Positions 2,073-51,558 of a stretch of 55,411 nt of DNA are shown piece after piece. The notes under the pieces were generated by a model. It searched no databases, was not told the DNA's origin, and saw only the letters and a list, made by a program, of their open reading frames with translations. Origin of the DNA: a virus. Lineage: Duplodnaviria; Heunggongvirae; Uroviricota; Caudoviricetes. Numbering within the stretch: position 1 is the stretch's first letter; each line of letters starts with the position of its first letter. The stretch spans positions 64,001-119,411 of IMG/VR virus record IMGVR_UViG_3300009551_000002; one strand, 5' to 3'. A program made the position numbers and the translations under genes.

Positions 2073-2084
2073 GAATATCATAGT

Positions 2085-2255: not shown

Positions 2256-2264
2256 GAGACGACC

Positions 2265-2710: not shown

Positions 2711-2880
2711 AGGTCTGGGTCCGTCTCAACACGCATGTTCACGAGGGAGTCGGCCCCGGATTCCCGGATCAGTCGGTTATTGAAAGCGTAGATGTATTTG
2801 ATCATCCTGTACCTCGTGGGATCGAATGCGAAGTACAGAGTCTAGGAGAACACACATGGCAGCCGCAGCAATCAACATAA
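2707..2880 (+). CDS. Small hypothetical protein (57 aa, below cutoff)
   Basis: ATG 2707 overlaps the upstream stop; frame MKVWVRLNTHVHEG...QST fills the gap. Confidence 0.5.
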   Translation: MKVWVRLNTHVHEGVGPGFPDQSVIESVDVFDHPVPRGIECEVQSLGEHTWQPQQST

Positions 2881-4401: not shown

Positions 4402-4405
4402 CTCT

Positions 4406-12858: not shown

Positions 12859-13121
12859 CACCAAATTCCTTGCAGGGAGTCCTGAACGGGGCGGAAGCGT
12901 CCTCCTCCGAGCGTAACCGCCCCTACGGGATCGATACTACGACAGCCGGTACGCTCCAGGAGCGCTATTTCATGATTCTGGCCGGGCTACTCGAAAAGAA
13001 CCTCGCCGTGCAGATCGAGATCCGCGATATGCTGACGGCTCTGAATAAGCCTACAGTCGTACCCGAAACTCCTGCCCAGCAGACCCAGCAAAGAAAGAAG
13101 GATCGTGATGAAAAGAAATAA
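12855..13121 (+). CDS. Hypothetical protein
   Basis: ATGA overlap with the terL stop. Confidence 0.6.
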   Translation: MTPNSLQGVLNGAEASSSERNRPYGIDTTTAGTLQERYFMILAGLLEKNLAVQIEIRDMLTALNKPTVVPETPAQQTQQRKKDRDEKK

Positions 13122-13542
13122 AGTGGCCTATACCCTCTCGATCGTGATCGCGGTCATCTTCGCTGCGATGCTTACGATGCCGGATAGCACGCATGCGCAG
13201 AACGGCTATCCGCAACTGACCAATTTCGTCGTCGTTCGTCCGCAGGCAATCCCGACTTCGGCCACTGATGTCATCAAGCAGAATGCCTACGTGTGTTATG
13301 CCGACTTCACGGCGACTGGCCAGACTATCTCTGTACAGGATCGGCAGGCGACTCCGGTGGTGTGGCTCAATAATGCATTGGGGGCTTCAGGGAGCGCCAG
13401 CACTTGGTTCTTCACGCCGATCATTCCGAATGCGTGTCGCCCCATGCCGAATGGGATTACGGTGCAGGCTGGTGGTGCTGGCGTCACAGGCACGATGGTC
13501 ATCGGCTGCCCGACACGTTGCGTATTGACCTGGGGTTTCTAA
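13108..13542 (+). CDS. Secreted protein (signal peptide, mature Gln, 4 Cys)
   Basis: MKRNK + hydrophobic core + THA/QNGY cleavage pattern; start may be GTG 13105. Confidence 0.65.
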   Translation: MKRNKVAYTLSIVIAVIFAAMLTMPDSTHAQNGYPQLTNFVVVRPQAIPTSATDVIKQNAYVCYADFTATGQTISVQDRQATPVVWLNNALGASGSASTWFFTPIIPNACRPMPNGITVQAGGAGVTGTMVIGCPTRCVLTWGF

Positions 13543-33915: not shown

Positions 33916-34529
33916 TGCTTCCTATCTTTCCCCAGGCTGGTAGACCCGGTCTCGGCTATCCCGTGGTACGTCGTCCGTATTTCTCTACAATTGTGACTAC
34001 GGCTTCGAGTGGTACGGAAGTCCGCATCGGGAATTATCTTTATCCACTGTCGGAGTGGGATTTATTGTTCGAGGGGCTCAAGGCCGATCAGTTGAATCAG
34101 ACCTTGCAGACACTTTACGGCTTCTACGTCAGTAACTACGGCAAGTTTGGTGCGTTTCTTTTTGAAGACTTGACTGACAATACCACTAGTCCTGACCCTA
34201 CGAATCCTACCCCTTCTATCATCATCGCGGACGGAGTAACGCAGAAGTACCAGATCGGGCGCTGCTGGCCAAACGGCGGATCGACCGGCTTTGAGCCTCT
34301 GTTCGATCTGAATGGAACTCCCACGGTGACTCCGACTCCGTCTTCGATTAGCACCAATGGCTTGATGGATTTCGGTGGAGCCTTGCCGGTCGGCACGCAA
34401 ATCAAGATGGACTTCAAGTATTACTGGCGAGTGCGTTTCGCCGACGATGACTTAGAGTTCAGCAATTTCGGCCAATATTTGTGGGAAATGAAGAAGCTTA
34501 CTCTCCGTCAGGTGCGCACGTCATTATGA
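33915..34529 (+). CDS. Distal tail protein, DUF2460 / GTA g12-like
   Basis: RPYFSTIVTTASSGTEVR, FY...G....FLFED, YYWRVRFADD. Confidence 0.8.
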   Translation: MLPIFPQAGRPGLGYPVVRRPYFSTIVTTASSGTEVRIGNYLYPLSEWDLLFEGLKADQLNQTLQTLYGFYVSNYGKFGAFLFEDLTDNTTSPDPTNPTPSIIIADGVTQKYQIGRCWPNGGSTGFEPLFDLNGTPTVTPTPSSISTNGLMDFGGALPVGTQIKMDFKYYWRVRFADDDLEFSNFGQYLWEMKKLTLRQVRTSL

Positions 34530-34530
34530 C

Positions 34531-34731
34531 CTACCACTCTATCTCTTGGAGTTCAGGCTTCTCGTCTAAGAGACATATCTGGACGCATAGTCTTCCTGGA
34601 CAGGACTGGTCTGTATGCCGATAGTATCTCCTGATCGAATCGACGATCGGCCAGCCTTCCTGGCGATAACACGGCATCTCTCCCCCACAGAGTTTGCAGG
34701 GGAGAGTCGCCGGGTAAGTAGACGTGCTCAT
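34531..34731 (-). CDS. Small antisense Cys-rich protein inserted in the tail operon
   Basis: Fits the gap between two + genes; CKLC and H..SC motifs; no + strand gene covers the gap convincingly. Confidence 0.5.
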   Translation of the reverse strand: MSTSTYPATLPCKLCGGEMPCYRQEGWPIVDSIRRYYRHTDQSCPGRLCVQICLLDEKPELQEIEW

Positions 34732-34763
34732 GGATCAATAGTACTACAAATGAGTAAGAAATC

Positions 34764-36323
34764 ATGAAAGCCGCCAGCCAACAGTTGATCGACTTCCTCG
34801 CCAACCTGTCAGAGAACGAACCTGACGCGGCAGTGTGGATCGTCGACCTGTACACGTTCACCTTGACGAACGGTCTCGTCCTCAACTGGTGCTCGTGGGA
34901 TCAGCCCATTACTCTTCGGCAGGGCTCCATCACCGGAGCGCAGTTATCGGCAGGAGGAGTTGGCTCGCGTGTTGGCGATACCTACGTCTTGAATGCTGGA
35001 AACAACGATGCCATCATCGAAGCCCAAGCGGTCGACGGCATCGGCGCGATCACGCAGTTCACCTACAACGCGCTCTCTACCGATTCCGCCAACAGTCCCG
35101 GCACCGGCTATCAGATCTGGAATAACGTCACCGTCTATCCTGGCGGTTCGCAGCCCGGTCAAGGCTCTGGAATCCTCATCAACATCACAGCCGTCAGCGG
35201 AACAGTCACCTACGAAGTCCTCTCTCCGGCCACTCCCGACGTGCCTGCTATCGAGCGTTCCAAGATCAATAGCACGGTCGGCCTATCTGTCGATGACCTG
35301 ACTGTGACGATCGCGTCGACGCCGACCGTGCAGATCCCAGCAGGCAGCGGCAATAGTCTCCTGTCTGCTTTGCAATCCGGCACGTTTGACGGCGCTCAAG
35401 TTTCCGTGCAGCGCCTGACGATGCCTCGACCGGGCGATACGAGCCTCGGCACCGTCATGTGGTTCCGAGGCACAGTAGGCGATATCCAGGACATCACGAA
35501 GATTGGTGCCAAGATCATCGTCAAAGCATTGACGGAATATCTGAACATCAACATGCCCAAGAACCTGTTCCAGCCTGGGTGTCGACACACGTTATTCGAC
35601 GTGGGCTGTACTCTGAATCCACAGAATTTCACAACGGCTGGGAGCGTTCAAAGCAATCCGGCACCGACCGTCATTTCCTTTGCAACGAGCTTGACGGCTC
35701 CCGGCCCCATTCCAGGCCCGACTGCCAGTGTAGGACTTTCTCAGACCGGCATTACTGGAGTGAATCTCGCGACAACGACCTATTACGTGGTCGTCACTTA
35801 CGTTACCGGTGTAGGCGAGACTGGCCCGTCACCAGAAAGCTCAAGGACGATCGGTTCTGGAAACAGCAATACGCAGAATCAAGTGCTCATCGTCGACTCG
35901 CCGCCTCCCGCAGCCGGAGTGCTCGGCTATAACGTCTACATTGGCGAACAATCCGGCCAATGGCAATTGCAGAACGGCGGCCCTATCCCTATCGGCCAAA
36001 GTTTTACGATGGACGGTGATGGGCTGGTACAGGGCGTGCCTCCACCGAGCGACACCACCGGCTATTACACGCAAGGAGTCATCCTCTTCACTAACGGGGC
36101 GAACGCTGGAGAGAGCCGCTTCATCGTACGCTACGGCGACGACACCACTGGTCGTGGAGTCGTGACGATCATTGATGCACTGCCGGTCACGCCCAATCCC
36201 GGCGATACCTTCATCATCCGTCCTGGCTGCGACAAGCACAGTTCGACTTGTCAGAATAAGTTTAATAATCTTATCCACTTCGGTGGCATGCCGTTTACGC
36301 CTTCGCCGGAGACCTCGTTCTGA
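34764..36323 (+). CDS. Baseplate hub/tail tip protein, DUF2163-BR0599 (GTA g13/lambda L-like) with two inserted domains
   Basis: DLYTFTLTNG..W, PGCRHTLFD.GC, GCDKHSSTCQNKFNN..FGG.PF.P. Confidence 0.85.
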   Translation: MKAASQQLIDFLANLSENEPDAAVWIVDLYTFTLTNGLVLNWCSWDQPITLRQGSITGAQLSAGGVGSRVGDTYVLNAGNNDAIIEAQAVDGIGAITQFTYNALSTDSANSPGTGYQIWNNVTVYPGGSQPGQGSGILINITAVSGTVTYEVLSPATPDVPAIERSKINSTVGLSVDDLTVTIASTPTVQIPAGSGNSLLSALQSGTFDGAQVSVQRLTMPRPGDTSLGTVMWFRGTVGDIQDITKIGAKIIVKALTEYLNINMPKNLFQPGCRHTLFDVGCTLNPQNFTTAGSVQSNPAPTVISFATSLTAPGPIPGPTASVGLSQTGITGVNLATTTYYVVVTYVTGVGETGPSPESSRTIGSGNSNTQNQVLIVDSPPPAAGVLGYNVYIGEQSGQWQLQNGGPIPIGQSFTMDGDGLVQGVPPPSDTTGYYTQGVILFTNGANAGESRFIVRYGDDTTGRGVVTIIDALPVTPNPGDTFIIRPGCDKHSSTCQNKFNNLIHFGGMPFTPSPETSF

Positions 36324-36324
36324 T

Positions 36325-36762
36325 ATGTTTCCCGACTCTCCATCGATTCGTCAGCAGGTCATCGAAGAGGCCGAACGCTGGAAGGGCACCCCCTTCCTCC
36401 ACAACGCCATGGTTCGCGGCTGCGGTGTCGGCTGCGGGACTCTGCTCATGGGCGTCTATGGCGCGCTAGGCGTCCCTGTGCCGACTCTCGACGAGTTAGG
36501 ACATTTCCCTCGTGACTGGCACCAGCATACAGACGAGGAACGCTATCTGAACATCCTCCTCAAGTACTCAAAGATCGTCGCAGCGCCTCAGCCGGGCGAT
36601 ATGGTGCTCTTCAAGATGAAGCGGGTCTACGGTCACTCTGGCCTTATCACTACGTGGCCTCACCTGATTCATGTCCTCTGGGGCAGCACCGTGCAGGGCG
36701 CGAATGCCGATCAGATGCCCTTGCAGAAATATCCAAGAATATTCCTCAGTCCGTTTGTGTAA
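36325..36762 (+). CDS. NlpC/P60 tail-associated peptidase (GTA g14/lambda K-like)
   Basis: AERWKGTPF.H, GVGC (Cys), GHSG (His), LIH. Confidence 0.85.
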   Translation: MFPDSPSIRQQVIEEAERWKGTPFLHNAMVRGCGVGCGTLLMGVYGALGVPVPTLDELGHFPRDWHQHTDEERYLNILLKYSKIVAAPQPGDMVLFKMKRVYGHSGLITTWPHLIHVLWGSTVQGANADQMPLQKYPRIFLSPFV

Positions 36763-36804: not shown

Positions 36805-39800
36805 ATGTTTGGCTCTCCTAATCAAGCGGCTCCACATATCTTCCTCGGGTATCAACTCCAAAGCTCGATCTTTGGATTGCCGATCCCGATCATCTATGGT
36901 CAGCAACGAATGGCTGGCAACGTCATTTGGACCGGGAACTGGCAAGCGAATCCGTATTCCGGTTCTGGCGGCAAAGGCAGCAAGGGAGGCAAGGCAGGCA
37001 AGTCAGGAGCCGGTGGACAGATCTACACCTACTCCAGTGCCATTATCATCGCACTGTGCGGCGGTCCTGTACGTGGGATCGGATACGTGTGGGTCAACAA
37101 GGTTCGGCTTGCTGTTAGCTCGGCGAGCGAGCCGATTCTCATCCCGTCAGACGGCAGTCCAGTGGTCCCAGGCAATGCTGGGATACAGACCGCAACCGAT
37201 ACCGGAGTGACCGATATCACGACTGGACTATCATTTGCTTTATTTACTCCTACTGGCGTAAACCCCAATCTAGGTAAAGGACAATATTCTTACAACAACG
37301 GGACTTATACTTTTAGTCTTCTGGATGGCGGGACGACGGTCCTTATCAACTCGACGGGACAAACCTTCGCGATCCCGAATCCTAACCCTGGAGCCTTCAT
37401 TCCGAATCAGACCGCTTCGTTTACGGCAGCGACGACGACCAGCAATCTGATCACCGACAGCGGAGTCTATCAGGCAGTCACGTATAACGCGACGGCGACG
37501 GATTACGGCAACCCTGCCGGAGCGGTCTCGCTGATCGGCAATCAGCAGATCAAGTTCCGTAGAGTTCCGTCCAATCCACAGAGCGGTCAGTACACCTTTG
37601 ACCCGACCGTTGGATACGTCTTCAGTCCATTCGATGCCGGTCAACTCATCAGCATCAACTACACCTGGAACGATCCCAATTACCTGACGGACGGCAATCC
37701 AGTGCAGAGTTTGAACCTGACTCTCTTCGGAGGTGAAGAGGGACAAGCTCCTTGGGATTACCTCGAAACCAACTTCCCCTCACAGGCATTAGGCTATTCC
37801 GGCCTCTCTTACCTAGCCAGCAACAAAATGGATTTAGGTTTTAGCGGGGCGCTCGATAATTATGGTTTTGAAGTATTAGGACTGTTCCCATTCGGTGGAG
37901 GCATCATCGATGCGGCGATCCCCGACGTTATCCAACATTTTCTTAGCGATCCTTTTGTTGGTGCTGGTTTTCCTGCTGGTGCTATTGGCGATCTATCCGA
38001 ACTTCGCAACTACACGATCGCCAGCAACATCTTCATCTCGTGCGTGGTTGATAGCCAGCGTACCGCAGCCGACTGGTTATCCGATTGGATGACGATCGCC
38101 AACTGTGAAGCTGTGTGGTCGAATGGCGTTCTGAAGTTCCGTGCCTACGGTGATAAAACCGTCATCGGCAACGGCGTCACGTTCACGCCGGTCACTTCCC
38201 CGATCTACGATCTCGACGACGACGACTTTACTGGCGACGCCGAAACTGCATTACTTAGCGTGACGCGTCCGACGATTCGCGACGCTTACAACTCTGTCAG
38301 CGTCGAGTGGACGAATCGCGCGAACAATTATTCTGCCGAGCCTGTAGAAGAACGCGACGACTGGAGCATCTCCCAATACGGCTTACGTCCTGCTCCTGTG
38401 CAGCAGCTACACTCGATCACCACTAGCACTGTCGGTCAGATGGTGGCGAACACAGCCCTGCAACGCAGCGTATACATTCGCAACCAATATAAGTTCAAGT
38501 TGTCCGCAGTTAAGTATCAGTTGCTCGAACCAATGGACATGGTCACGTTGACCGAGCCGGAGATGGGTCTGTTGAAGACTCCGGTTCGCATCAAGTCCAT
38601 CAGCGAAGACGACAAGTTAGAGCTAGAGTTCGAGTGTGAAGAATTCCCGTGGGGCACGGCTACTCCTACTCTCTTTCCTAAACAGAACATCGGCCCGTTC
38701 GGCCCGGTCTATTATCAGAATCCCGGTAACACGCTTCCGGTATTGTTCTACGAGCCTGATCCACCGGCAGTCATCTCTGGTGGCGTCGTCAATACTCTCT
38801 ACATCGGTCTGGCGGGTGCACAGAACTGGGGCGGCTGCCACGTCTACGCCTCAACTGACGGTGGGAAGAGCTACGTCCATGTCGGTAAGCAGACAGGGAC
38901 TTCGACTGTCGGCTACCTTACCGCTCCGTTGCCCCCGGTGACTTCACCCGACGACACCAGCACTTTGTCGTTGGATATGTCCATCAGTCAAGCAGAATTG
39001 CTGTCTTACACGCAATCTCAAGAGAACAATCTGGTCCCGCTTTGTGTCATTGACCAGGAACTGATTTCTTACAGAACTGCAAAACTAACCGGAAATAATC
39101 AGTGGGATCTGACGCACATGCAGCGCGCGGCTTACGAGAGCCCGCTCTCGCAACACAGTGTCGGCTCTCCTTTCGGTTTCTTCGACGACGCAATGTTCGT
39201 TTGGGAGTTCGACGAGTCCAACGTCAACACTACAGTCTATTTCAAATTCCTCAGTTTCAACAAAGCCGGGCTGATGCCGCAGACTCTGGATAAGGTTCCG
39301 GCGTATCCATACTTCATTCACGGGCGGCGTCCTCCGTACCCCTGGTCAACTCACGACCCGTTCACCGAAAACGCACCGAACGATCTCTATCGTAGCCCGA
39401 ACTTCGGTCTATGGGAGAAGCTCCTCACCGACGTCAACGGCAACATTACTCCGCAATTCACGATCGCCGGATTCGGTACGGTCAACGTATTTTCCAAAGC
39501 GACCGTCGCTCCTTCTTTCGGAGCGGTCACGGTCTCTCCGACTGGTGGCACTATCAAAGGGAATCAGGTCGTGGTTCTCGGAGTGTTCGCGCAGGCCAGC
39601 GATAACCTCTTCACGCGCATGGCTCTGATGTCGGTGGAAGTTCCTGCCGGATCGGATACCAACAGAATCGACTTTACTGTTTCTTTCGCCAATCCTACCG
39701 ACCAGGGATGGATCGCGATCACGACCGATCCGGAAGCTGGGTGGTTCGGCCCCGGCATCGTAGCGGTTCCGACGAACTCGACGGCATCGCTGACTCCGCA

Positions 39801-41763
39801 AATGACCGCCATGGCGAACGCGTATCTGGCTTCGTCGCATGCCGCAGGAGTCGATGTCGACCACTGGCTATTCTTCTATCAGCAGATCACCGGAGTGAAC
39901 ATCTCGCCGGTTCAGGCAGAAGCGGTAATCGTAGCTCTGGGAGAAACGGACGCTACCCGCACGACTCCTATCGCGTTGAGTACATTCTTGACCGTACTGC
40001 CGACCGTGATTGAAGTCGCCAGTTACACCTTCACCGAGATTGGAGAACTTGATACTCCGGTTCCCGACGAGCAGTTCGACCATTACGTCGTACAAGCGCG
40101 CGTCGGCTACGTGCTCGGCGCTACTGGACAGGCGATCACCAGTATCAATTATCAGACCGGTGAGATCTCCATGGTTTCGGGCGCGAATGCTCCGGCAGGA
40201 ACGCAGGCTTGGGTAGGACGAACTGTAACCTGTTACGCGATGCAGGACGCGACGAATCCATTGGTCATATTTGATGAACCAATCGTTGCCCAAACGGATA
40301 CCACTATCTCGGTCGACCCGGCATCCTTGATCGATAGTAGTCCAAACGCATCGATCATCAGTACTCCGCTGACGTCTGCACAAGAAGCGAGCCTCATCGC
40401 GCAGGCCAGCCTGGACGCTAGTTACCCTAACTTCGGAGTCGATAAGTGGCTGTTCTACTGGACGCTGGTTACCGGCGTGAGTCTGGCGGGTGGTCAGGTC
40501 GAGAAGATCATTTTAAGTCTTGGTCTGACTGATGCTACTCGTGCGACGGTCATTACCGTAGATCAGTTCCTGACTGCTCTGCCTGCCGCAGCTTCCTTCC
40601 TTGGTGTCGGAGATCACCTGCTAGTCCGGCTGACCTGCACGGGATTCGCTCCGGGAAGAGTCGAAGACAACACGCTTCTGTTCTGGAAGAACGATCAGTT
40701 GCCCAATGGTCCTTCTATTTTCGGAATGACTCCGAACGCCTACGTGGGCAAAGTGGTCTTCCTCACGAGGGGGACCGGAGCCGGTCAGTTCTCTAACGTG
40801 GTCAGCAACGACTCCATCGGATTCAACGTCAGTCCGGCATTTGAAATCGTACCCGATGCGACCACGGAATTCGTAGTCATCAATTCGAGCGTCGACTACG
40901 AAACCGATACCAGCCCGCTAACCTTTAGTTCACTGGAGTCTGGTGTCAGCAGCGGGGCTCTCACTTCCGAACTCTCACAAGCTGCGACGCAGTACCTACT
41001 AAACACTGGAGTCGCGGGGGTCGACGTCGATCATTGGATGTTCTTCTACCAGCAGATCACCGGCATCCCGATCAGTCCTGTACAAGCCGAAGCGATCATC
41101 ATCGCCTGTGGTCTGAGCGATGCAACGCGGACGAGCTTTGTTCCTCTGGGGACTTTCCTTGAGGCTCTCCCTGGCGCGGGCACTCCGATCTTCCTGACGC
41201 TCAATGTCGATAACAGTTGGCAGCATTACTTCATCCAGGTGCTGACGGTAAACAACGAGAATATCCGTTCGCTTCCGCAGTTCTCGCCTTATCGGATGAT
41301 CTTCCAGCCTGGATTCTCTGGGCCGAACAACTTCGGTACTCCGCAGGATACGTTCTATATTGGCTACCTGCCTGGAGGCTTACCGGGACCGATCCCCGCA
41401 GGAGGAACCAGCACACTCTCGGTAGAGACCGTGCCCGGCATTCTGTTCGGTTGGGATGCCGTTGCAGAGATCAACAACGGAACTGCGGATACGGTCTTCG
41501 ACATCCTACGTACTCGCACGGAGGGTGGAGTCACCACGACCGTCAGCATCTTCAACGATCCTTCGCAGTACATCACGATCCCTGGTGGAAGTACGTTGAT
41601 CGCTTCGGGGACGGCTTTCAGCACGACCTCCAATGACATTCGTCAGGGAGACATCTTGCAGTTGGTTGTGATCAGCGTCGATGGTTCTTCTCCGGCAGAG
41701 CGAGCCACGGTGAACCTGTTCTGGAAAAACAATCCGCTGCCGGGCGGGGTGGTTGGTCAATAG
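36805..41763 (+). CDS. Central tail tip/host-specificity protein (J/GTA g15-like, 1652 aa)
   Basis: PIPIIYGQQRMAGNVIW, YSGLSY, phage-tail_3-type core (YNSVSVEW.NRANNY, LLEPMD.VTL); three dispersed helical inserts. Confidence 0.88.
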   Translation: MFGSPNQAAPHIFLGYQLQSSIFGLPIPIIYGQQRMAGNVIWTGNWQANPYSGSGGKGSKGGKAGKSGAGGQIYTYSSAIIIALCGGPVRGIGYVWVNKVRLAVSSASEPILIPSDGSPVVPGNAGIQTATDTGVTDITTGLSFALFTPTGVNPNLGKGQYSYNNGTYTFSLLDGGTTVLINSTGQTFAIPNPNPGAFIPNQTASFTAATTTSNLITDSGVYQAVTYNATATDYGNPAGAVSLIGNQQIKFRRVPSNPQSGQYTFDPTVGYVFSPFDAGQLISINYTWNDPNYLTDGNPVQSLNLTLFGGEEGQAPWDYLETNFPSQALGYSGLSYLASNKMDLGFSGALDNYGFEVLGLFPFGGGIIDAAIPDVIQHFLSDPFVGAGFPAGAIGDLSELRNYTIASNIFISCVVDSQRTAADWLSDWMTIANCEAVWSNGVLKFRAYGDKTVIGNGVTFTPVTSPIYDLDDDDFTGDAETALLSVTRPTIRDAYNSVSVEWTNRANNYSAEPVEERDDWSISQYGLRPAPVQQLHSITTSTVGQMVANTALQRSVYIRNQYKFKLSAVKYQLLEPMDMVTLTEPEMGLLKTPVRIKSISEDDKLELEFECEEFPWGTATPTLFPKQNIGPFGPVYYQNPGNTLPVLFYEPDPPAVISGGVVNTLYIGLAGAQNWGGCHVYASTDGGKSYVHVGKQTGTSTVGYLTAPLPPVTSPDDTSTLSLDMSISQAELLSYTQSQENNLVPLCVIDQELISYRTAKLTGNNQWDLTHMQRAAYESPLSQHSVGSPFGFFDDAMFVWEFDESNVNTTVYFKFLSFNKAGLMPQTLDKVPAYPYFIHGRRPPYPWSTHDPFTENAPNDLYRSPNFGLWEKLLTDVNGNITPQFTIAGFGTVNVFSKATVAPSFGAVTVSPTGGTIKGNQVVVLGVFAQASDNLFTRMALMSVEVPAGSDTNRIDFTVSFANPTDQGWIAITTDPEAGWFGPGIVAVPTNSTASLTPQMTAMANAYLASSHAAGVDVDHWLFFYQQITGVNISPVQAEAVIVALGETDATRTTPIALSTFLTVLPTVIEVASYTFTEIGELDTPVPDEQFDHYVVQARVGYVLGATGQAITSINYQTGEISMVSGANAPAGTQAWVGRTVTCYAMQDATNPLVIFDEPIVAQTDTTISVDPASLIDSSPNASIISTPLTSAQEASLIAQASLDASYPNFGVDKWLFYWTLVTGVSLAGGQVEKIILSLGLTDATRATVITVDQFLTALPAAASFLGVGDHLLVRLTCTGFAPGRVEDNTLLFWKNDQLPNGPSIFGMTPNAYVGKVVFLTRGTGAGQFSNVVSNDSIGFNVSPAFEIVPDATTEFVVINSSVDYETDTSPLTFSSLESGVSSGALTSELSQAATQYLLNTGVAGVDVDHWMFFYQQITGIPISPVQAEAIIIACGLSDATRTSFVPLGTFLEALPGAGTPIFLTLNVDNSWQHYFIQVLTVNNENIRSLPQFSPYRMIFQPGFSGPNNFGTPQDTFYIGYLPGGLPGPIPAGGTSTLSVETVPGILFGWDAVAEINNGTADTVFDILRTRTEGGVTTTVSIFNDPSQYITIPGGSTLIASGTAFSTTSNDIRQGDILQLVVISVDGSSPAERATVNLFWKNNPLPGGVVGQ

Positions 41764-43267: not shown

Positions 43268-45250
43268 GTGCCGCCAATCAATCTAACAGCAACGGAGAAC
43301 GGGGGATTCTTCCTTGAAGAGGAAGCCGATTATATCGGCCCCGTTCTAGGGACTGAATTCATCAGTTATCGAGATAAGGCGCAAGGGCCGAGTCTCGATA
43401 ACAAAATTCGTCTCGGCGATCACGCCACGATAGCGGTCATCCCGCCACAGCCGTATTTGATATCCGGCCCGACTCAGGTCAATTCCACGCAGGTCATTAG
43501 ATCGTTTGCCGGACCTTTTACGCAAGCTTCTAACTTACTACGTTCAGCGATATTAGCGGTGGTTTCTGACACGACGGATGATGTGGCGACACCAATGTCT
43601 CATCTCTCGGCTTTTGTGACGACCGATGGTGGTTTGACTTGGTCAGAAGTTGTCGGCCCCTATATATTCCAGTGGGATTATACGATGTGGCAGGCGACTT
43701 ACGGCAGCGGATGGACACCGTCTGATACACAAGTACACTTAGCTGGATTCTGCCAGCCTCCTTGGCCAGCCGGAAACAACTTCGGAACATTACCACCAGG
43801 ATATGATCTCGCGTTGGGATTTGGCGGGATTCCCATTTGTGCTGGGAGGGAAGGTTCTTCGGACGACATCTTCACGATCAATACTCCGCGAGGCATTACC
43901 ATCGTTCCCGAACAGATGCCCTTCGGTCTACAACAAACGGGGGGAAGTTGGCCGTTCAACATGGGGTCTCCTTCCTTCTTCGATTACGGCTACGTTAGCC
44001 AGTCGAATGCGGCCTCGATGGAATTGTGGCTATATAGTTTCAACCTCGCGTCTTTTTCGTGGTCAGTGCGCGGTAAGTGTGGCGAGTATTTGATGATTGG
44101 GCCGGGAGGTTCCTACGCACACGGCGGCGGTAGTTTCGGGGGACTTCTCTGCGCGCCGGACATTATTGCTATCAAGAACGGGCGCGGCATTGCGATGACG
44201 CACTTTGGCGGTCAGTGGTTTAACGGTGTCGGCAATGGCTCACATATAGGTTTCCCTCCCGTTCCAGGTTCTATCTTTCCAGTCAATGCTGGGCCGGGAG
44301 GCGGGGCTGAAATGATTATGAATTTCAGTACGACGGGAGGCTCGCATAATTGGAGCTACGTCACGGACCCGGACTCAAATTCTACTGCTAACCCGTCTAA
44401 TCCGCCGAATAATTCCTGGCGACCAGGATTAAGATCTGATTTTCAAACGAGAGGCATTCTATCCAATGGGGATATAGTCCTCGGAGGTAACCAAGTCGAC
44501 ATTGCAGTACAATACTCGCGGTATCGCGTCATGCGATGGCCAAGTGGAAGCTCTTCGGAAATACCGATATTTGAGAATGCTGTGGGGCCTATCTTTACCG
44601 GTGGAAGTTTTATTCTCTATCCTCCAGACGGCACTCCTCCAGTTACTCCATTCAACGGATCTAACTTAATTGATTTTCAAGGAAACCTTGATTCTTATCG
44701 TCAGGACATGACTGCTGGTAAGGTTCTAGCCATACAACCCCTTACTGCTGAGGGAGATTACTTCGGGATCTTGTACTCCGATAACAAAGTGATCGTCAAC
44801 AATGCCTCACAGGCATGGGTGGCGGCACTCGGCATTCTAGGAAATCAGCCGCAGACTCCAAATTACACGACACGGCTACGAGTGAGACTTAGCTGGATTC
44901 CATTCTCCATGCCGTTTTTGCGGCCTGAACCGCTCCTTTATTCTGATGCGATCCCGCCGCCGAGTGGTCATGAGGCGAGTGGATCTAAAGTTTTTCATCA
45001 ACCTCTTCCGCCGTTCTATAACGCGCAACCGATCGGGCATACGCTAGGGCCGGATAAAACACTCGGCATCTGTACTGTGCAGCCTGTCTTGAATCCATAC
45101 ACTGGAGATTTCTGCACTGCTAATCCACCGGGAGGACCACAATATGAGGGCGGAATATATAACATTTACTACAGTCGTGCTTGGATTCCATGGCCCGCCG
45201 GAGTGTCAGGGGCCTACATCTCAGGGAAGGGAAACTTCCTACTCGGCTAG
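43268..45250 (+). CDS. Pro/Gly/aromatic-rich 660-aa protein, possible receptor-binding beta-propeller
   Basis: GTG right after the upstream stop; Asp-box TTDGGLTW. Confidence 0.65.
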   Translation: MPPINLTATENGGFFLEEEADYIGPVLGTEFISYRDKAQGPSLDNKIRLGDHATIAVIPPQPYLISGPTQVNSTQVIRSFAGPFTQASNLLRSAILAVVSDTTDDVATPMSHLSAFVTTDGGLTWSEVVGPYIFQWDYTMWQATYGSGWTPSDTQVHLAGFCQPPWPAGNNFGTLPPGYDLALGFGGIPICAGREGSSDDIFTINTPRGITIVPEQMPFGLQQTGGSWPFNMGSPSFFDYGYVSQSNAASMELWLYSFNLASFSWSVRGKCGEYLMIGPGGSYAHGGGSFGGLLCAPDIIAIKNGRGIAMTHFGGQWFNGVGNGSHIGFPPVPGSIFPVNAGPGGGAEMIMNFSTTGGSHNWSYVTDPDSNSTANPSNPPNNSWRPGLRSDFQTRGILSNGDIVLGGNQVDIAVQYSRYRVMRWPSGSSSEIPIFENAVGPIFTGGSFILYPPDGTPPVTPFNGSNLIDFQGNLDSYRQDMTAGKVLAIQPLTAEGDYFGILYSDNKVIVNNASQAWVAALGILGNQPQTPNYTTRLRVRLSWIPFSMPFLRPEPLLYSDAIPPPSGHEASGSKVFHQPLPPFYNAQPIGHTLGPDKTLGICTVQPVLNPYTGDFCTANPPGGPQYEGGIYNIYYSRAWIPWPAGVSGAYISGKGNFLLG

Positions 45251-45298: not shown

Positions 45299-45592
45299 TT
45301 GATGATACGTACGATTTCACCAGCGGAGAACTATATCGTCTGTGGCCGAGTAGGCATGACCGAAGTCGTGCCCGGCTCTGTAAAGGAACGATGCTTCTCT
45401 TGTCATCACGACGTCGTCATCTTCCCGAACTCTCAGAAGATGCTCCACGAGCGTCCTGAGTTGAAGCTCAAGATCGTTTGTACGTCCTGTTACATGGCTG
45501 CTCCTGACAAGGACCGCATCCAACCGAAAATACTGACCCGGTCGAATTCGCCCGAGGGTCTGATCGATGTGCTTAGAAAGGGTCCGCGATGA
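45299..45592 (+). CDS. Small Zn-finger protein
   Basis: GGAGA SD; CFSC...CTSC. Confidence 0.65.
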   Translation: MMIRTISPAENYIVCGRVGMTEVVPGSVKERCFSCHHDVVIFPNSQKMLHERPELKLKIVCTSCYMAAPDKDRIQPKILTRSNSPEGLIDVLRKGPR

Positions 45593-47577
45593 ATAAATTC
45601 ATTTCTACTACAATTCTTTTAATAGTGATGCTTTTTGTCAGTGTCACTGTGCAGGCGCAGACGTCGCCGTTTCCTCCGTCCGGTGGTGGTGCCGGAGCAG
45701 GCGCGATCGCTTGCTCAGGCACCCCTGGCAATACGACTGGCTCTTACCGGCAACAGTGTCAGACAGGCACCGGCGCTGTGTTCGCCTGCAACAATGCCAG
45801 TGGATGTACCGTAGCAGCGGATTGGGTTGCGGCGGTCGCTGGGACCGTGCGCGCCGGTCTGATCAGTGGCTTACCTGCTACCTGCAATGTCGGTGACGTC
45901 TACTTCGCGACCGATGCAGCGGCGGGCGCGAACATTTATCAATGTACGGCGACGGACATCTGGTCTCCTCCGGTCAGCGGCAGCGGTTCCACGAGCTACA
46001 GTCAGTCCTTTACTTCGCAGACCAGTGTCACCTTGACGCATAATCTAGGCACTGTCGCGGTAGAGGTCCAATGCTTCGATAGCGGCTCTCCTCCGCAGAA
46101 GATCGAAACGAACACTGAGCAGGCGTCGACGACCAATAGCTATACGGTCACCTTCTCGGTTGCTCAGAGTGGAAGCTGTGTGGTGCTTTCCGGTAGCGGT
46201 GGAGTCGGTCCAACCGGTCCAGCCGGTGCTCCTGGCGGCACCCCGCCCGGTGCCTTGTACAACACGCCTCTGACTGGGCTAGGGCTCGAATACGTCTCAG
46301 GCTTGACGTACACAGTAGGCGCAGGAACCTATCTGATCGGAGGAACACAGTATGCGAGCGCACAGACTCCCATCACGTTGGCGACTGCTGACCCTACCAA
46401 TCCTCGCATTGACGTCATCTACGTCGACAACAATAGCTCCGTGCAGGTGCTCACCGGGACACCTGCTGCAACGCCGTCTCAACCGTCAGTCGACTACTCA
46501 ACAGAATTGCCGTTGAACGTCGCACTAATTCCTGCTGGTGGAAGTGCTCCGACTGGAGTCTCCACCACACTGATCTATGACGAGAACGTAGAGTGGACTT
46601 GTTCTTCGACGACCCACATCAATTGCGCTTCGACGAACAATCCATATCACGGGACCAAAGACATTGAAGCGACAGCGGCAGTTCTAGGCAACAGCTTCAC
46701 GTTGGTTAAGCCTGCCAGCGGTACGACCGATCTCTCGACTCTCAACTCACTCGTTTGCTATATCGACCCTAAAGCAAAGTGGCCTAGCGGCAGCGGCACT
46801 GGGTCGAGCGCTCTGCGCACACTCTCTTTGTTCTGGTTGAACGGAGCAACACAAGTCGGACTCCAGGTCGTCATCCGCGATGGCGCATTCAATTTCAACT
46901 CAGCTACTCCGAGTTATCAGCAGATCAGTATCCCGCTAGGGCCGACAGGTCCTTTCGGTACTGGATCGAATCTCGTTACTTCCCTCAAAGGACAGATCAC
47001 CGGCAACGGTGGAACCTCCAGCATTGGGTTCTATGTCGATCAGTGTAGCCTACAGGGCGGCACTGGAGCCGTCACCCTGCCTATCACCTCGATGAACTTC
47101 AAGGGGAATTGGGCGAGCACGGCCAGCTATAACACTAACGACGTAGTGATTAGCAGTAACTGCGGCTATGTGGCGTTGACGAACAACACCAATGTGAATC
47201 CAAGCAATACTTCTACATGGCAGAACCTCTGCTCTGGAGTTGTGCCTATCACGACCGGCACGACTTCGATCACGCTCTCAGGGCCAACAGCCATTGGTAT
47301 CTGCCCTGGCGGCGGGGCATGCAATGTCGCGGTTCCGGTTCCTGTTAAGGGTGCCATGTACTGTGCCTGGAATGACGACAACGTGTCGACGACGATCACA
47401 TTCACGGCGCTAGGCTCGTCCGCACGCTATGAGAATCAGGCAAGGACAGCTTATGGGACGGCAGGTACAGGGACGCTTAGCTCAGCCGGAGCCGTGGGCG
47501 ACAAAGCCTGCATTGTAGGCATCGACAGTACGCACTATCAAACGATCAACGCTAGTGGGACTTGGACGGCCAGCTAA
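45589..47577 (+). CDS. Secreted multidomain fibre/adhesin-like protein (662 aa, 18 Cys)
   Basis: Signal peptide ..VTVQA/QTSP; short collagen-like GPTGPAGAPGG; GNW...Y..NDVV carbohydrate-binding-like motif. Confidence 0.75.
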   Translation: MNKFISTTILLIVMLFVSVTVQAQTSPFPPSGGGAGAGAIACSGTPGNTTGSYRQQCQTGTGAVFACNNASGCTVAADWVAAVAGTVRAGLISGLPATCNVGDVYFATDAAAGANIYQCTATDIWSPPVSGSGSTSYSQSFTSQTSVTLTHNLGTVAVEVQCFDSGSPPQKIETNTEQASTTNSYTVTFSVAQSGSCVVLSGSGGVGPTGPAGAPGGTPPGALYNTPLTGLGLEYVSGLTYTVGAGTYLIGGTQYASAQTPITLATADPTNPRIDVIYVDNNSSVQVLTGTPAATPSQPSVDYSTELPLNVALIPAGGSAPTGVSTTLIYDENVEWTCSSTTHINCASTNNPYHGTKDIEATAAVLGNSFTLVKPASGTTDLSTLNSLVCYIDPKAKWPSGSGTGSSALRTLSLFWLNGATQVGLQVVIRDGAFNFNSATPSYQQISIPLGPTGPFGTGSNLVTSLKGQITGNGGTSSIGFYVDQCSLQGGTGAVTLPITSMNFKGNWASTASYNTNDVVISSNCGYVALTNNTNVNPSNTSTWQNLCSGVVPITTGTTSITLSGPTAIGICPGGGACNVAVPVPVKGAMYCAWNDDNVSTTITFTALGSSARYENQARTAYGTAGTGTLSSAGAVGDKACIVGIDSTHYQTINASGTWTAS

Positions 47578-47578
47578 C

Positions 47579-48718
47579 ATGAAGCTCGTAATCTTACTCT
47601 TATCTGCGTTGTTCGCTAACGGTCAGATCCCCTTCCCGATTCTAATGGGCGGGTCGTCTGCTCCGAACCACAACGGCTTCGCGCACTATCGCGTGATCAC
47701 CATCAATCATACGCTCGTTCCAAATACTGACCAGACGAATTTCCCTGTGTTGGTGAATGGGACGATCTCGGCGACAGTCGGCAACGGTGGAAGTATTCAG
47801 CATACGGTCACCCAATCCGGAGGGTACGGACTGACGATCCCAGCGGACGCGATCGTCACCACTGATGTCGGGTGTACCACGAAAGTCGCAGGTTGGGAGT
47901 TTGAGGCTTACTCCGTTACAACGGGAGCTTCGTTGATTTGGTTCAATGCAAATACGGTTTCTCATCTCGTGGATAGCAAGTATTATCTCTGCTACGGGAA
48001 GCCTTCGATCTCGACTCAGCAAATGACAGTGTCGAGTACGTACGATGCTAATACTGGCGGCGCATGGCACTGGCCGAACGGGACAACCATTCAGAATGCT
48101 GACTCAACTGTAAATGGAAACACGACGAACGCGACCGTTGCAGTTACCGGCGAGATTGACGGCGGTACCGGCAACCCAGCATTTAATCTTGCAGTTTGTT
48201 GTGCAGGTACGAATTTGAGCCCGGCTTCTACAGTCACCTACGAAGGTTGGGCAAACTTCACTAATCTGTCCAATAGCCTGAACACGATCGGTGCTTGGGA
48301 CAATAATCGCGTCATTGGCACGGGCGGCGGCTACACTCTCAGCGTCAATAGTTCCGGCCACGTCACAGCGGGGATTGTGATCGCAGGGACGCAACTTACG
48401 ACTCTTGGAACACAGACGCTCGTTCCCGGTACTTGGTATCATCTGGCCTTGACGTACTCCAACGCTACCGGATTGATCTCCTATGTTAATGGGGTGCAGG
48501 ACGGAATAGTTGCTGGAGCAGGCACTTCAATTGATTATTCCGGCAACGCGTCTCTTCCCGGTATGAGATTTCTAACTTCTTTGACAGCGGGCGGTATGAC
48601 TGGCAGCATTGATGAACACCGAGTCTCGACCAGCGTCAGGTCAGCGGATTGGCTCAGGGCCGAATACAACAACCAGTCTAATCCGACGACATTCGCTCCG
48701 TTGGGCTCGGAGAATTAA
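47579..48718 (+). CDS. Secreted DUF2341-like plus LamG/ConA-like lectin protein
   Basis: MKLVILLLSALFANG/Q; TNFPVLV, WYHLALTY, YVNG, IDE.RVS..RSADWLRAEYNNQ. Confidence 0.8.
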   Translation: MKLVILLLSALFANGQIPFPILMGGSSAPNHNGFAHYRVITINHTLVPNTDQTNFPVLVNGTISATVGNGGSIQHTVTQSGGYGLTIPADAIVTTDVGCTTKVAGWEFEAYSVTTGASLIWFNANTVSHLVDSKYYLCYGKPSISTQQMTVSSTYDANTGGAWHWPNGTTIQNADSTVNGNTTNATVAVTGEIDGGTGNPAFNLAVCCAGTNLSPASTVTYEGWANFTNLSNSLNTIGAWDNNRVIGTGGGYTLSVNSSGHVTAGIVIAGTQLTTLGTQTLVPGTWYHLALTYSNATGLISYVNGVQDGIVAGAGTSIDYSGNASLPGMRFLTSLTAGGMTGSIDEHRVSTSVRSADWLRAEYNNQSNPTTFAPLGSEN

Positions 48719-48723
48719 CTATT

Positions 48724-49842
48724 ATGAAGACAAAATTGTTATTTCTACCATTTGTACTATTGTTTAGCCTGAATGCACAGACGAAGATCAACGGGAGGCG
48801 CGCTGTCACCGGCAGCGTGAATCCTCAGACTTCTACCTATCAAGTCTTGGCCTCCGACTTTAATAGTCCTTGCGGGGTCATCTCTGTCGCGTCTGGCACG
48901 TTCACAGTCACGCTCGTCGCTTCTGGTTCGCAACCTCCGGCTGGACAGTGCGTGACGATTATCAACTACGGCATAGGTGTATTGACTCTCGCGAGGAGCG
49001 GGCAGAACATCAACGGTGCTGCATCAAACATCGTCGGATCAGCGGGCACGGCGCTCAGTCCCACGGGTTGGACCGTGACGTCGGACGGCACGAACTATAT
49101 CGCAGCGCCTATCGGCGGCAGTGGTGGAGTGTCGATTACTTCCGGCCCCATCGCCTCTCGTCCTGGGTCGCCAGGGAACGCAGGCTCTATGTACTACTGC
49201 ACGGACTCTCCATATACTTACTTGTCTAACGGCTCAACGTGGGACGCTTATATCTTTGGCTATAAAGTCGTCGAGCCTGTAATGGCTAATTTCACACAGG
49301 TAAACGTCGGCCTCAGTACTTTCGACACGACTCACGGAGGCATCCTCTGGTCGGCAGGAACCGCAGGCGGGCATAATGTTCAAGTCCTGACGCAAACAGC
49401 AGGTATCCCTGCGTCCGGCGCTTATTATGTAGATGCTGCTTTTATTGCCTCATTCGGTGCTGGTAATGGAGCCTTCGGTGCCGGTCTAGCTGGCGGACTG
49501 CTCGCGTCAAGTTCATTTGCTTTTGCTGATTGGGGTGGTGAGAATAACTCTCAGTTCGGCATGGCTGCTAAGTTCTATAACACTACCACAAGCTATAACG
49601 GATCTGGTGGTTTTATAAATATGTGGCCCTTAGCTGCCCCACTTGCATGGTTCCGAATGTTTGACGATAGAGTCACAACGAGGACATATTATTACAGCAA
49701 TAACGGGTATCAGTGGTATCAGATCTACTCTGAGCCTAGGACGACACTTTTTACACCCGCATTCGGCACTGTAGCAATAACCAACTTCTCGACAAGCGCT
49801 AAACTGCTGCTACACTTTGTCCATTTTTCTATTCATACCTAA
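48724..49842 (+). CDS. Secreted tail-fibre-like protein, paralogue A
   Basis: MKTKLLFLPFVLLFSLNA/Q; YQVLASD..TVTL..IINYG.G.LT...SGQNING fibre domain. Confidence 0.78.
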   Translation: MKTKLLFLPFVLLFSLNAQTKINGRRAVTGSVNPQTSTYQVLASDFNSPCGVISVASGTFTVTLVASGSQPPAGQCVTIINYGIGVLTLARSGQNINGAASNIVGSAGTALSPTGWTVTSDGTNYIAAPIGGSGGVSITSGPIASRPGSPGNAGSMYYCTDSPYTYLSNGSTWDAYIFGYKVVEPVMANFTQVNVGLSTFDTTHGGILWSAGTAGGHNVQVLTQTAGIPASGAYYVDAAFIASFGAGNGAFGAGLAGGLLASSSFAFADWGGENNSQFGMAAKFYNTTTSYNGSGGFINMWPLAAPLAWFRMFDDRVTTRTYYYSNNGYQWYQIYSEPRTTLFTPAFGTVAITNFSTSAKLLLHFVHFSIHT

Positions 49843-49873
49843 AATCCCGCTCGGTGAACAATTAAAGGAGCCT

Positions 49874-50971
49874 ATGAAAAAGATACCTAGCCTACTGCTT
49901 ATGTTATCCGTCTCTTTGCTCGCTCAGCAAAGAACAGTAGTCGGCAGACGTGCCTATAGTGGGAGCGTCAATCCACAGACCACAACATATCAAGTTCTCG
50001 CATCGGACTTCAATGCACCGTGTGGTACGATACCAGTTGCTTCCGGGACGTTCACAATTACACTTGTGGCGAGCGTGTCACAACCTCCGGCAGGTCAATG
50101 CCTCGACATCATCAACTATGGTCCGGGAGTGTTGACGGTCGCGAGGAGCGGCCAGAACATCAATGGTGGGACAGCTTCGCTGTCTATTATTGCGGGATCG
50201 GCTACTGCTCCAACCGGCGTTCACATCTTGTCGAACGGCGTCGATTATATTGCCAGTGGTTGGGGAGCCCCGCCCGCCAATTCCATACTTCCCCCAGTAG
50301 CGTTTGCCAGTATTCCATCGGCCTTGACTGCTGGACGTTTGCAGATGTTCACGGATTCTCCCTACTTTGCCTACGACACCGGGTCTTCCTGGACGTACAT
50401 ACTTAATGGGAGCGGGCAGTTCAACCCATTCGTGCTGGGGAATTTTACAGCAGTGAACCTTAGTACTTCGACGACCACCAATATCGGTGGCGTTATCAAC
50501 ATGCAGGACTCGGAGAGCAATACCCAGTTCCATGGCTACTGCATTGCAGCGCCTGCGACCCCATATACGATCTTTGTTCCGATCACCTACACAATCCAGA
50601 ACGCATCCTTCCCTTCGTTGACGCTTGGTTTTTCGGATGGCACAAAATTTGAAAATATCCGTGTTACAAACATCTCCGGCGGTATTCAAGTTACCGGAGA
50701 CACGTGGAGCACTTCGACGACTGGTGAGGGCAACCTCGGTTCGTTTTTACCTCTCATTGGAGGTATGGTTTCTGGGCTGTCTGTAACCGATAACGGCACC
50801 AATAAAATCTTCAAATGGTACACGGACCCGCATCTTAGTTCTCCGACGACGTATCTGACGGAGACCAGAACTACGTTTTTGACAGCAACTCAGTGGTGTA
50901 TAGGCATCACAAGTAATGGAAATGGAGCATCGCTCGTTAATGCGACCTTCCTGGGTTATCAGCAGCAATAG
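49874..50971 (+). CDS. Secreted tail-fibre-like protein, paralogue B
   Basis: AAAGGAG SD; MKKIPSLLLMLSVSLLA/QQ; N-terminal domain 63/75 identical to paralogue A. Confidence 0.8.
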   Translation: MKKIPSLLLMLSVSLLAQQRTVVGRRAYSGSVNPQTTTYQVLASDFNAPCGTIPVASGTFTITLVASVSQPPAGQCLDIINYGPGVLTVARSGQNINGGTASLSIIAGSATAPTGVHILSNGVDYIASGWGAPPANSILPPVAFASIPSALTAGRLQMFTDSPYFAYDTGSSWTYILNGSGQFNPFVLGNFTAVNLSTSTTTNIGGVINMQDSESNTQFHGYCIAAPATPYTIFVPITYTIQNASFPSLTLGFSDGTKFENIRVTNISGGIQVTGDTWSTSTTGEGNLGSFLPLIGGMVSGLSVTDNGTNKIFKWYTDPHLSSPTTYLTETRTTFLTATQWCIGITSNGNGASLVNATFLGYQQQ

Positions 50972-51035
50972 GCGGCCCGAGGTATAGGCGACGATGTCGT
51001 CTTTTATGACATAATGGAACGGACTCAGGTATCCC

Positions 51036-51500
51036 ATGAATCACAAACTCCTCCTCCTCCTTTTGACGATCGTTGGTTGTTCCGGCCAGCAGGTCTTTCA
51101 GGTGACAGCCAATAACGGCGACGGCACCACCTGTACCGGCGTGCAGAACTCCGGCACCAACGTCAACTTTACCTTGACTTGCGTGGCTATGTTCCAAGGC
51201 AAGCCCACCGGGGTCTACCACATCTATGAAGGCGGTAGCGCGCAGGTGAAGGTCCCCGGCGCTCATACGGTCAGCTTGGGCGACGTGCTCTGTTTGTTCG
51301 GATCTAACCCGACGAACTTCGCGGTCACCTTCCCTCTGCTACCTCCCACCCCTGCCCATAGTCTTGCCTACGACTGTGCAGTGAATCTCAGGAACGCTAA
51401 CGTGGTGGTTGGGAATGCTCCCGGAGTGAGCGGCGTGGTAACATGGACCGCGCTTACCCAACGTAGCTTTCTCTATCGTCTATTTCATCCACGTTCGTAG
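51036..51500 (+). CDS. Secreted protein or lipoprotein
   Basis: MNHKLLLLLLTIVGCSG/QQ: either an SPI site before Gln or an IVGC lipobox; 4 further Cys. Confidence 0.7.
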   Translation: MNHKLLLLLLTIVGCSGQQVFQVTANNGDGTTCTGVQNSGTNVNFTLTCVAMFQGKPTGVYHIYEGGSAQVKVPGAHTVSLGDVLCLFGSNPTNFAVTFPLLPPTPAHSLAYDCAVNLRNANVVVGNAPGVSGVVTWTALTQRSFLYRLFHPRS

Positions 51501-51523
51501 GGCATATAAGCGTCTCTTCTAAG

Positions 51524-51558
51524 GCGGGTCAGCTTCGGCTGGCCCGCTATTTTTATTT
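51524..51558 (+). terminator. Rho-independent terminator ending the late operon
   Basis: GCGGGTCAGC-TTCG-GCTGGCCCGC stem-loop plus T-rich tail. Confidence 0.88.

Follow-up and report, generated by a model that had tools for sequence, protein, structure and literature searches.

Why should the end of a tailed-phage tail operon, where the tail fibre genes normally sit, be occupied by five consecutive genes whose products seem to be addressed to the outside of the cytoplasm, when tailed-phage assembly is, in the textbook account, wholly cytoplasmic? The question is raised by a 55,411-nucleotide stretch of DNA (hereafter, “the window”) that makes up the final 55.4 kb of a 119,411-bp Caudoviricetes record (IMG/VR IMGVR_UViG_3300009551_000002, positions 64,001 to 119,411) and, in particular, by the genes closing its tail operon, which are referred to as O1–O5 below (Table 1). 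The answer proposed here comes in two parts of unequal firmness: the products of O1–O5 are, judging by their leaders and those of their homologues, very probably exported and cleaved, and they may tentatively be read, at a likelihood that does not quite reach even, as disulfide-stabilised glycan-binding accessory proteins that would act on the host envelope or matrix and be freed at lysis. We infer export, cleavage, pyroglutamate formation, disulfide pairing and role alike from the sequence. What makes the locus worth attention is that the fibre slot of a tail operon here holds proteins predicted by every sequence criterion to leave the cytoplasm, and that dozens of contigs from uncultured soil phages show it as well.

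Leaders were detected with a crude heuristic scorer of the n-, h- and c-regions (a positive n-region, an uncharged hydrophobic h-region of 8–16 residues and small residues at −3 and −1), as well as by direct reading of the sequences; the scorer also flags holins. Genome-wide, it flagged 19 of the 180 open reading frames (ORFs), including all five of O1–O5, and none of the 21 virion-module proteins from the terminase to a leaderless protein of 660 amino acids (aa) encoded just before the block. Runs of five leader-bearing ORFs would be expected by chance only ~0.002 times at this rate, and the leaders of O1–O5 are not due to chance. The five adjacent leader-bearing ORFs at the end of the tail operon, each with Gln after the predicted cleavage site, which an earlier note on this DNA had pointed out, were all confirmed on the plus strand, and its Cys counts held upon recount (Table 1).

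Table 1. Features of the window referred to in the text (positions counted from the first letter of the window).
Feature	Position	Strand	Remarks
O1, 662 aa, 18 Cys	45589-47577	+	Predicted leader 1-23 ending in VQA, then Gln24 (QTSP)
O2, 379 aa, 4 Cys	47579-48718	+	Predicted leader 1-15 ending in ANG, then Gln16 (QIPF)
O3, 372 aa, 3 Cys	48724-49842	+	Predicted leader 1-18 ending in LNA, then Gln19 (QTK)
O4, 365 aa, 4 Cys	49874-50971	+	Predicted leader 1-17 ending in LLA, then Gln18-Gln19 (QQR); O3 paralogue
O5, 154 aa, 4 mature Cys (+1 in the leader)	51036-51500	+	Predicted leader ending in CSG, then QQV
Intrinsic terminator closing the operon	51523-51548	+	Strong; stem of 11 pairs (8 of them GC) ahead of a T run
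97-aa leaderless ORF with four Cys (CxxC...CxxC, zinc-ribbon-like)	45299-45592	+	TTG start; stop overlaps the O1 start (ATGA)
1652-aa Phage-tail_3 plus Rcc01698_C protein	36805-41763	+	Tail tip
Gp84_N plus BR0599 hub	34764-36323	+	Tail tip
DUF2460	33915-34529	+	Tail tip
Sixth predicted exported protein, same signature (THA, then QNGY)	13105-13542	+	Between terminase and portal; from the heuristic leader scan

The long N termini on which this depends are partly absent from the public gene calls, which start O2 at Met23 and O3 at Val77 and thereby drop both leaders. The true start of O2 is the ATG lying 1 nt past the O1 stop, that of O4 is an ATG with a strong Shine-Dalgarno sequence (AAAGGAG) upstream, and the intergenic gaps from O1 to O5 are 1, 5, 31 and 64 nt long. 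As the long N termini are kept in homologues, and no internal ATG, GTG or TTG past the leaders of O1–O5 has a Shine-Dalgarno sequence, the long forms of O2 and O3 are taken to be real; leaderless isoforms arising from internal starts were considered and rejected on the latter ground. The trimming of leaders from two of the five genes by gene callers also means that the pattern is easily missed and probably under-reported by automated annotation. At the other end of the reading frames, O4 and O5 both terminate with TAG; given the amber suppressor tRNA of the phage, reading through would extend O5 by 2 aa and O4 by 47 aa (into the O5 start region, 50969–51112), and no recognisable feature was found in the latter extension.

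A predicted leader is found in 91 of 118 O3 homologues (Gln at +1 in 54 of the 91) and 93 of 120 O1 homologues (Gln at +1 in 58 of the 93), and several of the 27 leaderless O3 homologues are truncated or mis-started calls. For the O2 homologues, a family of ~370 aa, the figure is 49 of 90, the nearest ones retaining both the leader and the Gln, and all 18 of the O5 homologues read (~150 aa) have a signal peptidase I (SPI)-type leader, with Gln next in nearly all. Homologues lacking the leaders, which the earlier note had held to speak against export, thus do exist, but about 80% of those of O1 and O3 and every O5 homologue read keep one, whereas only roughly half of those of O2 do. In one cassette of a related kind (L002), leaders are present on the orthologues of O1, O2 and O3 and on an adjoining protein of 1086 aa (by eye, similar to a beta-helix depolymerase), their sequences differing from those found here; it is the property of having a leader, and not its letters, that is conserved. 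The leader of O5 is the ambiguous one, as it contains a lipobox (IVGC, matching [LVI][ASTVI][GAS]C; IVGC is also present in homologue P0332), which makes signal peptidase II an alternative to the CSG/QQ cleavage initially proposed, whereas the homologues favour that cleavage: the nearest one (P0331) and 15 others have an SPI-type leader followed by Gln and no lipobox. O5 was also considered as an exclusion lipoprotein of the Cor/Llp type or a spanin, and this was rejected: there is no family match and no C-terminal membrane segment, and its homologues are of the SPI-type secreted kind.

What, then, would be exported? The predicted structure of O1 (monomer prediction; predicted local distance difference test score, pLDDT, of 76 overall and above 90 in the core) resembles beads on a string, with the leader followed by a Gly-rich linker, a Cys-rich N-terminal module, an immunoglobulin (Ig)-like sandwich, a short G-X-Y linker, a conserved core (residues 222–500) and a C-terminal sandwich. 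The core has jelly rolls like those of carbohydrate-binding modules (CBMs) and, together with the flanking sandwiches, resembles CBM8, CBM16, CBM22 and Bacteroides surface glycan-binding proteins; the PHROG matches of O1 are partial (virion structural protein at 1.4e-8, tail fibre at 2.2e-6 over ~100 residues, and also head families). A “collagen-like GPT repeat” that O1 had been credited with comes down to three or four G-X-Y triplets in a low-confidence linker (residues 203–221). O2 comprises a DUF2341-like N-terminal domain and a LamG (concanavalin-A-like) C-terminal domain; of these two assignments, both proposed before, that of LamG stands (Pfam Laminin_G_3, PF13385, over residues 213–360 as numbered from 47573, two residues ahead of the true start; 52.5 bits with a cut-off of 27.6, 8e-14), whereas the match to DUF2341 (PF10102) stays under its cut-off (15.7 vs. 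23.4 bits). Many O2 homologues carry an annotated DUF2341, and the N-terminal domain of O2 is likely, by sequence, to be related to it.

O3 is modelled (again as a monomer, pLDDT of 87) as two globular beta domains, the C-terminal of which matches the concanavalin-A-like C-terminal domain of GH43 xylosidases, legume lectins, the Aap lectin domain and DUF1349 (Foldseek probability of 1.0, template modelling score by target of 0.46–0.67) and, among viral models, uncultured tail-fibre-type proteins; in PHROGs, O3 matches phrog_19068. Its N-terminal domain of ~95 aa (“YQVLASDF...GQNING...SDGTNY”) has a mean column identity of 67% over 32 otherwise differing proteins (alignment A1), no Pfam match and nothing in a sequence profile search of the PDB (E = 0.61); its two Cys are mostly present or absent jointly, and domains of this type occur at any position of a protein, at times in tandem. 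O4 has the same N-terminal domain and a divergent C-terminal one, so that mature O3 and O4 would both begin directly with this mobile domain. O5 is a beta protein whose family (~150 aa) has four conserved Cys and whose module is also repeated in giant proteins; structural searches with it gave weak Ig-like leads only. No virion-anchor domain was found in any of the five using Pfam and PHROGs. As a group, O1–O4 are predicted carbohydrate binders with lectin- or CBM-type modules, and the confidence of the monomer models (O3 and the O1 core) implies that these folds need no intertwined trimer. The “fibre” label fits in part only, O1 and O3 being modelled as confidently monomeric lectin/CBM sandwiches. 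As a side observation, a two-Cys module (C-x2-G ... aromatic-x-C-x2-9-W; residues 99–125 of O1) recurs within the first 200 residues of 31 of the 245 proteins collected, often placed directly between the leader and a poly-Gly linker, in exported proteins that differ in other respects.

The cysteines of these proteins are, for a part of the set, what would be expected of export to an oxidising compartment. Cys makes up 1.76% of O1–O5 vs. 0.62% of the leaderless virion proteins of the same phage, and its number in the mature protein is even in 80 of 91 exported O3, 80 of 93 exported O1 and 37 of 49 exported O2 homologues, as expected if all cysteines were paired. Within the O1 core, the median is 3.5–4 Cys for exported members vs. 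0–1 for leaderless ones (Mann-Whitney p = 3.5e-6), although the leaderless ones are also more distant, making lineage effects possible; C338 and C346 of O1 are present in 45 and 53, respectively, of the 85 exported members and in none of the 16 leaderless ones.

The residue following the cleavage site is the other recurrent feature, as Gln stands directly after the predicted SPI site in all of O1–O5, in the gene at 13105 and in ~60% of the leader-bearing O1 and O3 homologues. The host of the phage, which we infer only, is probably a member of the Acidobacteriota: when the conserved O3 domain was searched for in species-representative genomes, 10 of 10 matches were Acidobacteriota metagenome-assembled genomes (MAGs; Bryobacterales, Acidiferrales, Acidobacteriaceae, Solibacteraceae and Sulfotelmatobacter). 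A glutaminyl cyclase of the Glu_cyclase_2 family (E ~1e-90) is encoded by three of the five Acidobacteriota MAGs carrying homologues, and in 400 kb scanned of a Solibacteraceae MAG (G004), 14 of the 59 heuristic leaders have Gln at +1 and several more have it 1–2 residues further on. Going by its genomes, this host group could plausibly cap Gln N termini by means of a glutaminyl cyclase. The Q-rule was defined for Bacteroidetes in a study that did not include Acidobacteria (Bochtler et al. 2018, PMC5837995); the Gln at +1 of the leaders described here suggests that the rule, perhaps in a partial form, reaches past Bacteroidota. Genes of unknown function with Q-rule signal peptides have been reported in Porphyromonas gingivalis phages, where they were read as envelope modifiers and as adapted to how the host secretes proteins (Matrishin et al. 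2023, PMC10367356); Gln at +1 is common to both cases, but the host phylum is another one and no tail-fibre-like or lectin proteins were named there.

Put together, the reading that we tentatively prefer would run as follows. O1–O5 would be transcribed as late genes alongside the tail genes and delivered by the Sec translocon to the host periplasm, where the leader would be removed, the new N-terminal Gln probably cyclised by a host glutaminyl cyclase, and the cysteines paired. The mature products would be strings of carbohydrate-binding beta-sandwiches (CBM-like, LamG and concanavalin-A-like) with small conserved domains, i.e., accessory and horizontally mobile glycan binders instead of tail parts built in the cytoplasm, and would bind envelope or matrix polysaccharides outside the virion, from the periplasm late in infection and freely past lysis. 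On dying cells and their debris, they would probably mask or occupy receptors; keeping other phages out and binding the exopolysaccharide matrix are further likely roles.

The mobility that this reading supposes is seen best in a complete 62-kb phage (G006), in which the O1-O2-O3 cassette recurs at 71, 77 and 54% identity. G006 encodes a portal, a capsid and a leaderless tail fibre of its own, and homologues of the capsid and tail-tip proteins of the 119-kb phage could not be detected in it. The cassette is common to a phage of the siphovirus type and an apparently short-tailed one. Mature O2 and O3 are conserved over their full length between the two, leaving no tail-specific anchor apparent. 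The cassette of G006 lies on the same strand as its structural array, downstream of it and past a 6.5-kb opposite-strand glycosyltransferase island; the notion that it is detached from the tail genes was rejected upon mapping the genome. Outside of phages proper, six Acidobacteriota MAGs have, among housekeeping genes, a chromosomal pair (L005, 4643–12673; L009, 8558–12681; also L006–L008 and L013) of which gene 1 encodes a leader and long collagen repeats ending in an O3 N-type domain, and gene 2 a leader-bearing DUF2341-like protein of ~596 aa with 10–12 Cys; the pair may encode a surface fibre of the host that is akin to the phage products. O1-like genes are also found in small integrase islands. 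The six MAG loci had suggested O2 and O3 as partners, but the pairing is kept in just one of 41 viral loci. The island of G006 (29942–36410) consists of nine ORFs, with annotated glycosyltransferases and methyltransferases, and another LamG pair (the context of P0304) adjoins a sugar-biosynthesis cluster; the two together suggest a link between phage glycan modification and exported lectins.

A number of points weigh against this preferred reading. Wherever the neighbours of exported genes in viral contigs could be named, they were tail genes, and the exported genes recurrently occupy the usual place of fibre genes, where the tail operon ends: here after the tail-tip genes, in G006 after the structural array, in L054 after a J-like fibre and in L039 after a 1433-aa protein. 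O1 overlaps the stop of the leaderless ORF upstream by ATGA and is translationally coupled to it; O3 and O4 have the layout of a constant N-terminal and a variable C-terminal part typical of receptor-binding proteins (RBPs); and leaderless relatives sharing the O3 C-terminal domain have N termini that look, by eye, like those of ordinary fibres. Cys content goes with export only weakly among O2 relatives (p = 0.12) and not at all in the O3 C-domain family, in which leaderless members are equally Cys-bearing, so that Cys enrichment as a general mark of the exported forms was rejected, being true of the O1 core only; the export with oxidative folding proposed in the earlier note is supported indirectly (conserved leaders, even Cys numbers and Cys-poor leaderless O1-core relatives), its Cys part failing in the case of the O3 C domain. 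Sec reaches only the periplasm of a diderm; a route onward to the surface was not identified, and of three common endolysin families tried (Amidase_2, Phage_lysozyme and SLT), none was matched in the genome.

Much of this would fit better with O1–O4 being side fibres or RBPs that fold and form their disulfides in the periplasm and are added to completed tails once the holin has opened the inner membrane, or in the lysate, which we consider rather unlikely, yet the most serious of the alternatives. It would account for the occupation of the fibre slot in several unrelated phages and prophages, the coupling of O1 to the tail genes, the tail-fibre, virion structural and viral tail-fibre-type matches, the variable lectin tips on a constant base, which are shared with conventional fibres, and the ~95-aa domain being far more conserved than the rest, as would suit a docking or shaft module. 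In IMG/VR, 34 of the 40 ORFs strongly matching this domain carry a leader, and such leader-bearing genes usually come in runs of 2–7 consecutive ones (run lengths slightly inflated because the scorer flags holins too). In L045, a gene for a leader-plus-Gln protein follows two genes after that of the tape measure protein; in L054, a J-like central fibre is separated from the exported genes by a few leaderless ones and, next to the exported genes, one that is holin-like; and in L039, the end of a Terriglobia prophage, the 1433-aa terminal protein of the tail operon is followed by three leaderless genes, two genes for exported proteins (the first with 18 Cys, the second of the DUF2341-LamG type) and the genes of the host. 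Long collagen repeats, which are obligate trimers, are moreover carried by relatives. Against such docking stand the failure to find an N-terminal anchor domain in Pfam and PHROGs, the occurrence of the conserved domain at any position and in tandem instead of solely at the N terminus, models that are confident as monomers, the movement of the whole cassette between unrelated tails that each have their own leaderless fibre or tip candidates, the homologues in non-phage chromosomal settings and, finally, a topological problem for which no published precedent was found. The wider claim that Acidobacteriota (and probably other soil) phages run an extracytoplasmic branch of virion assembly, whereby fibres would be Sec-exported, pyroglutamate-capped, Dsb-cross-linked and joined to virions between holin triggering and outer-membrane rupture or in the lysate, is slightly more doubtful still.

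In the vicinity of these exported genes, holin-like multi-pass membrane genes were seen directly upstream of exported domain genes in L045 (9024–9488) and L054 (9089–9661), and a patatin-like (GGGIRG) gene lies between the tail tip and the exported genes of L054 (5925–6800).

It is improbable that O1–O5 are displayed on a carrier cell for its own benefit, expressed in a carrier or plasmid-prophage state as exclusion factors or adhesins of the “moron” type, comparable to the secreted collagen-like fibres of the host itself. The chromosomal two-gene cassettes of the six MAGs, the O1-like genes within integrase islands and a ParB-domain gene directly downstream of the O1–O5 operon all point that way, as does the parallel with the mosaic adhesive trimer (MAT) fibres of Bdellovibrio bacteriovorus, which are exported, act outside the cytoplasm and, in some cases, have a disulfide (Caulton et al. 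2024, PMC10769870). Compared by description only, O3 and O4 share with MAT fibres the signal peptide, the conserved beta-rich N-terminal domain and the variable adhesive tip (PMC10769870); the latter, however, are chromosomal fibres of a predatory bacterium and intertwined beta-helical trimers often ending in an S74 chaperone-protease (PMC10769870), whereas O1–O5 lie in a phage late operon, are modelled as monomeric beta-sandwiches and have no S74 match in Pfam. The 119-kb record has direct terminal repeats and is rated complete, no integrase match was found in it, and the phage is apparently virulent; O1–O5 sit inside the late structural operon with no promoter above chance of their own and a single terminator, after O5; and no outer-membrane targeting signal was recognised. 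Of the two fates that the earlier note had left open, virion attachment and host display, display by a lysogen is unlikely here given the complete genome without an integrase. That the leaders are non-functional, O1–O5 being cytoplasmic tail fibres or proteins with uncleaved hydrophobic N-terminal membrane anchors, is very improbable, as the skipped leaders in the source gene calls, the leaderless relatives in all three large families and the purely heuristic nature of the prediction are outweighed by long starts conserved among homologues and lacking internal substitutes with a Shine-Dalgarno sequence, by small −1/−3 residues followed by Gln in hundreds of relatives and by the even Cys numbers.

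How do O1–O5, on our preferred reading of them as exported glycan binders, compare with phage proteins already known to act on the envelope? T5 Llp, Cor of phi80, N15 and HK022, and lambda Lom and Bor have Sec or lipoprotein leaders and are encoded at or after tail-fibre genes, with Llp and Cor blocking the receptor of their own phage. These are, however, single small proteins that are mostly expressed early or from the prophage, whereas here there are five, of up to 662 aa, with lectin/CBM folds and in a late operon; no match of O1–O5 to Llp, Cor, Lom or Bor was found in Pfam or PHROGs. Conventional leaderless fibres and RBPs, for example from metagenomes (P0011–P0013, P0019, P0020 and P0202–P0225), have the O3 C-terminal domain and the O1 core at 35–51% identity and lectin-type tips of the same kind, those of the O1-core family being nearly Cys-free, unlike exported O1; the RBP of lactococcal phage 1358 is a further case, by fold. 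A full-text literature search retrieved no paper on Sec-exported tail fibres of tailed phages, nor was any description found of a tailed phage whose fibre slot is filled by a block of large, exported late proteins resembling lectins or fibres.

Either fate, virion-bound or free, would thus be an undescribed one. Were the proteins virion-bound, an assembly route would have gone unrecognised, and there would be a reason for such fibres to fail when expressed in the cytoplasm for host-range engineering; were they free, phages of a dominant soil phylum would be releasing stable disulfide-bonded lectins with every burst, which could mask receptors or bind the exopolysaccharide matrix and thereby shape adsorption and superinfection in soil.

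As for the phage itself, its sequence is well supported: most of the stretch is also covered by contigs of four further rhizosphere metagenome runs, in which a single letter differs (45537, one run) and a few short intervals are missing, so that assembly errors are ruled out where there is coverage. The phage was present in none of the RNA runs searched, and a search of 50,697 deposited phage genomes yielded one weak match and otherwise no relatives, cultured ones included; a viral-contig search with the whole of O3 gave no matches. The late operon on the plus strand runs from the terminase (11341) through the portal, protease/scaffold, capsid and adaptor genes to a tail tip of the RcGTA/phiJL001 type (Table 1), and four leaderless ORFs (243, 179, 660 and 97 aa) separate the 1652-aa protein from O1. 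The 660-aa protein (43268–45250), just before the exported block, gave weak BNR/Asp-box, sialidase-like leads and no matches in a viral-contig search, and may be a conventional cytoplasmic tailspike of the phage; the 97-aa one, without a family match, could serve O1 as a partner or chaperone, or could simply have been over-called. At the far end of the operon, the interval between the terminase and the portal holds the sixth predicted exported protein, and in a relative (L003, a 328-kb contig), positions 1859–4666, just upstream of the homologous portal gene, hold three ORFs with leaders (621, 157 and 135 aa) as well as a small one rich in Cys, so that this interval looks like a second conserved site for exported proteins.

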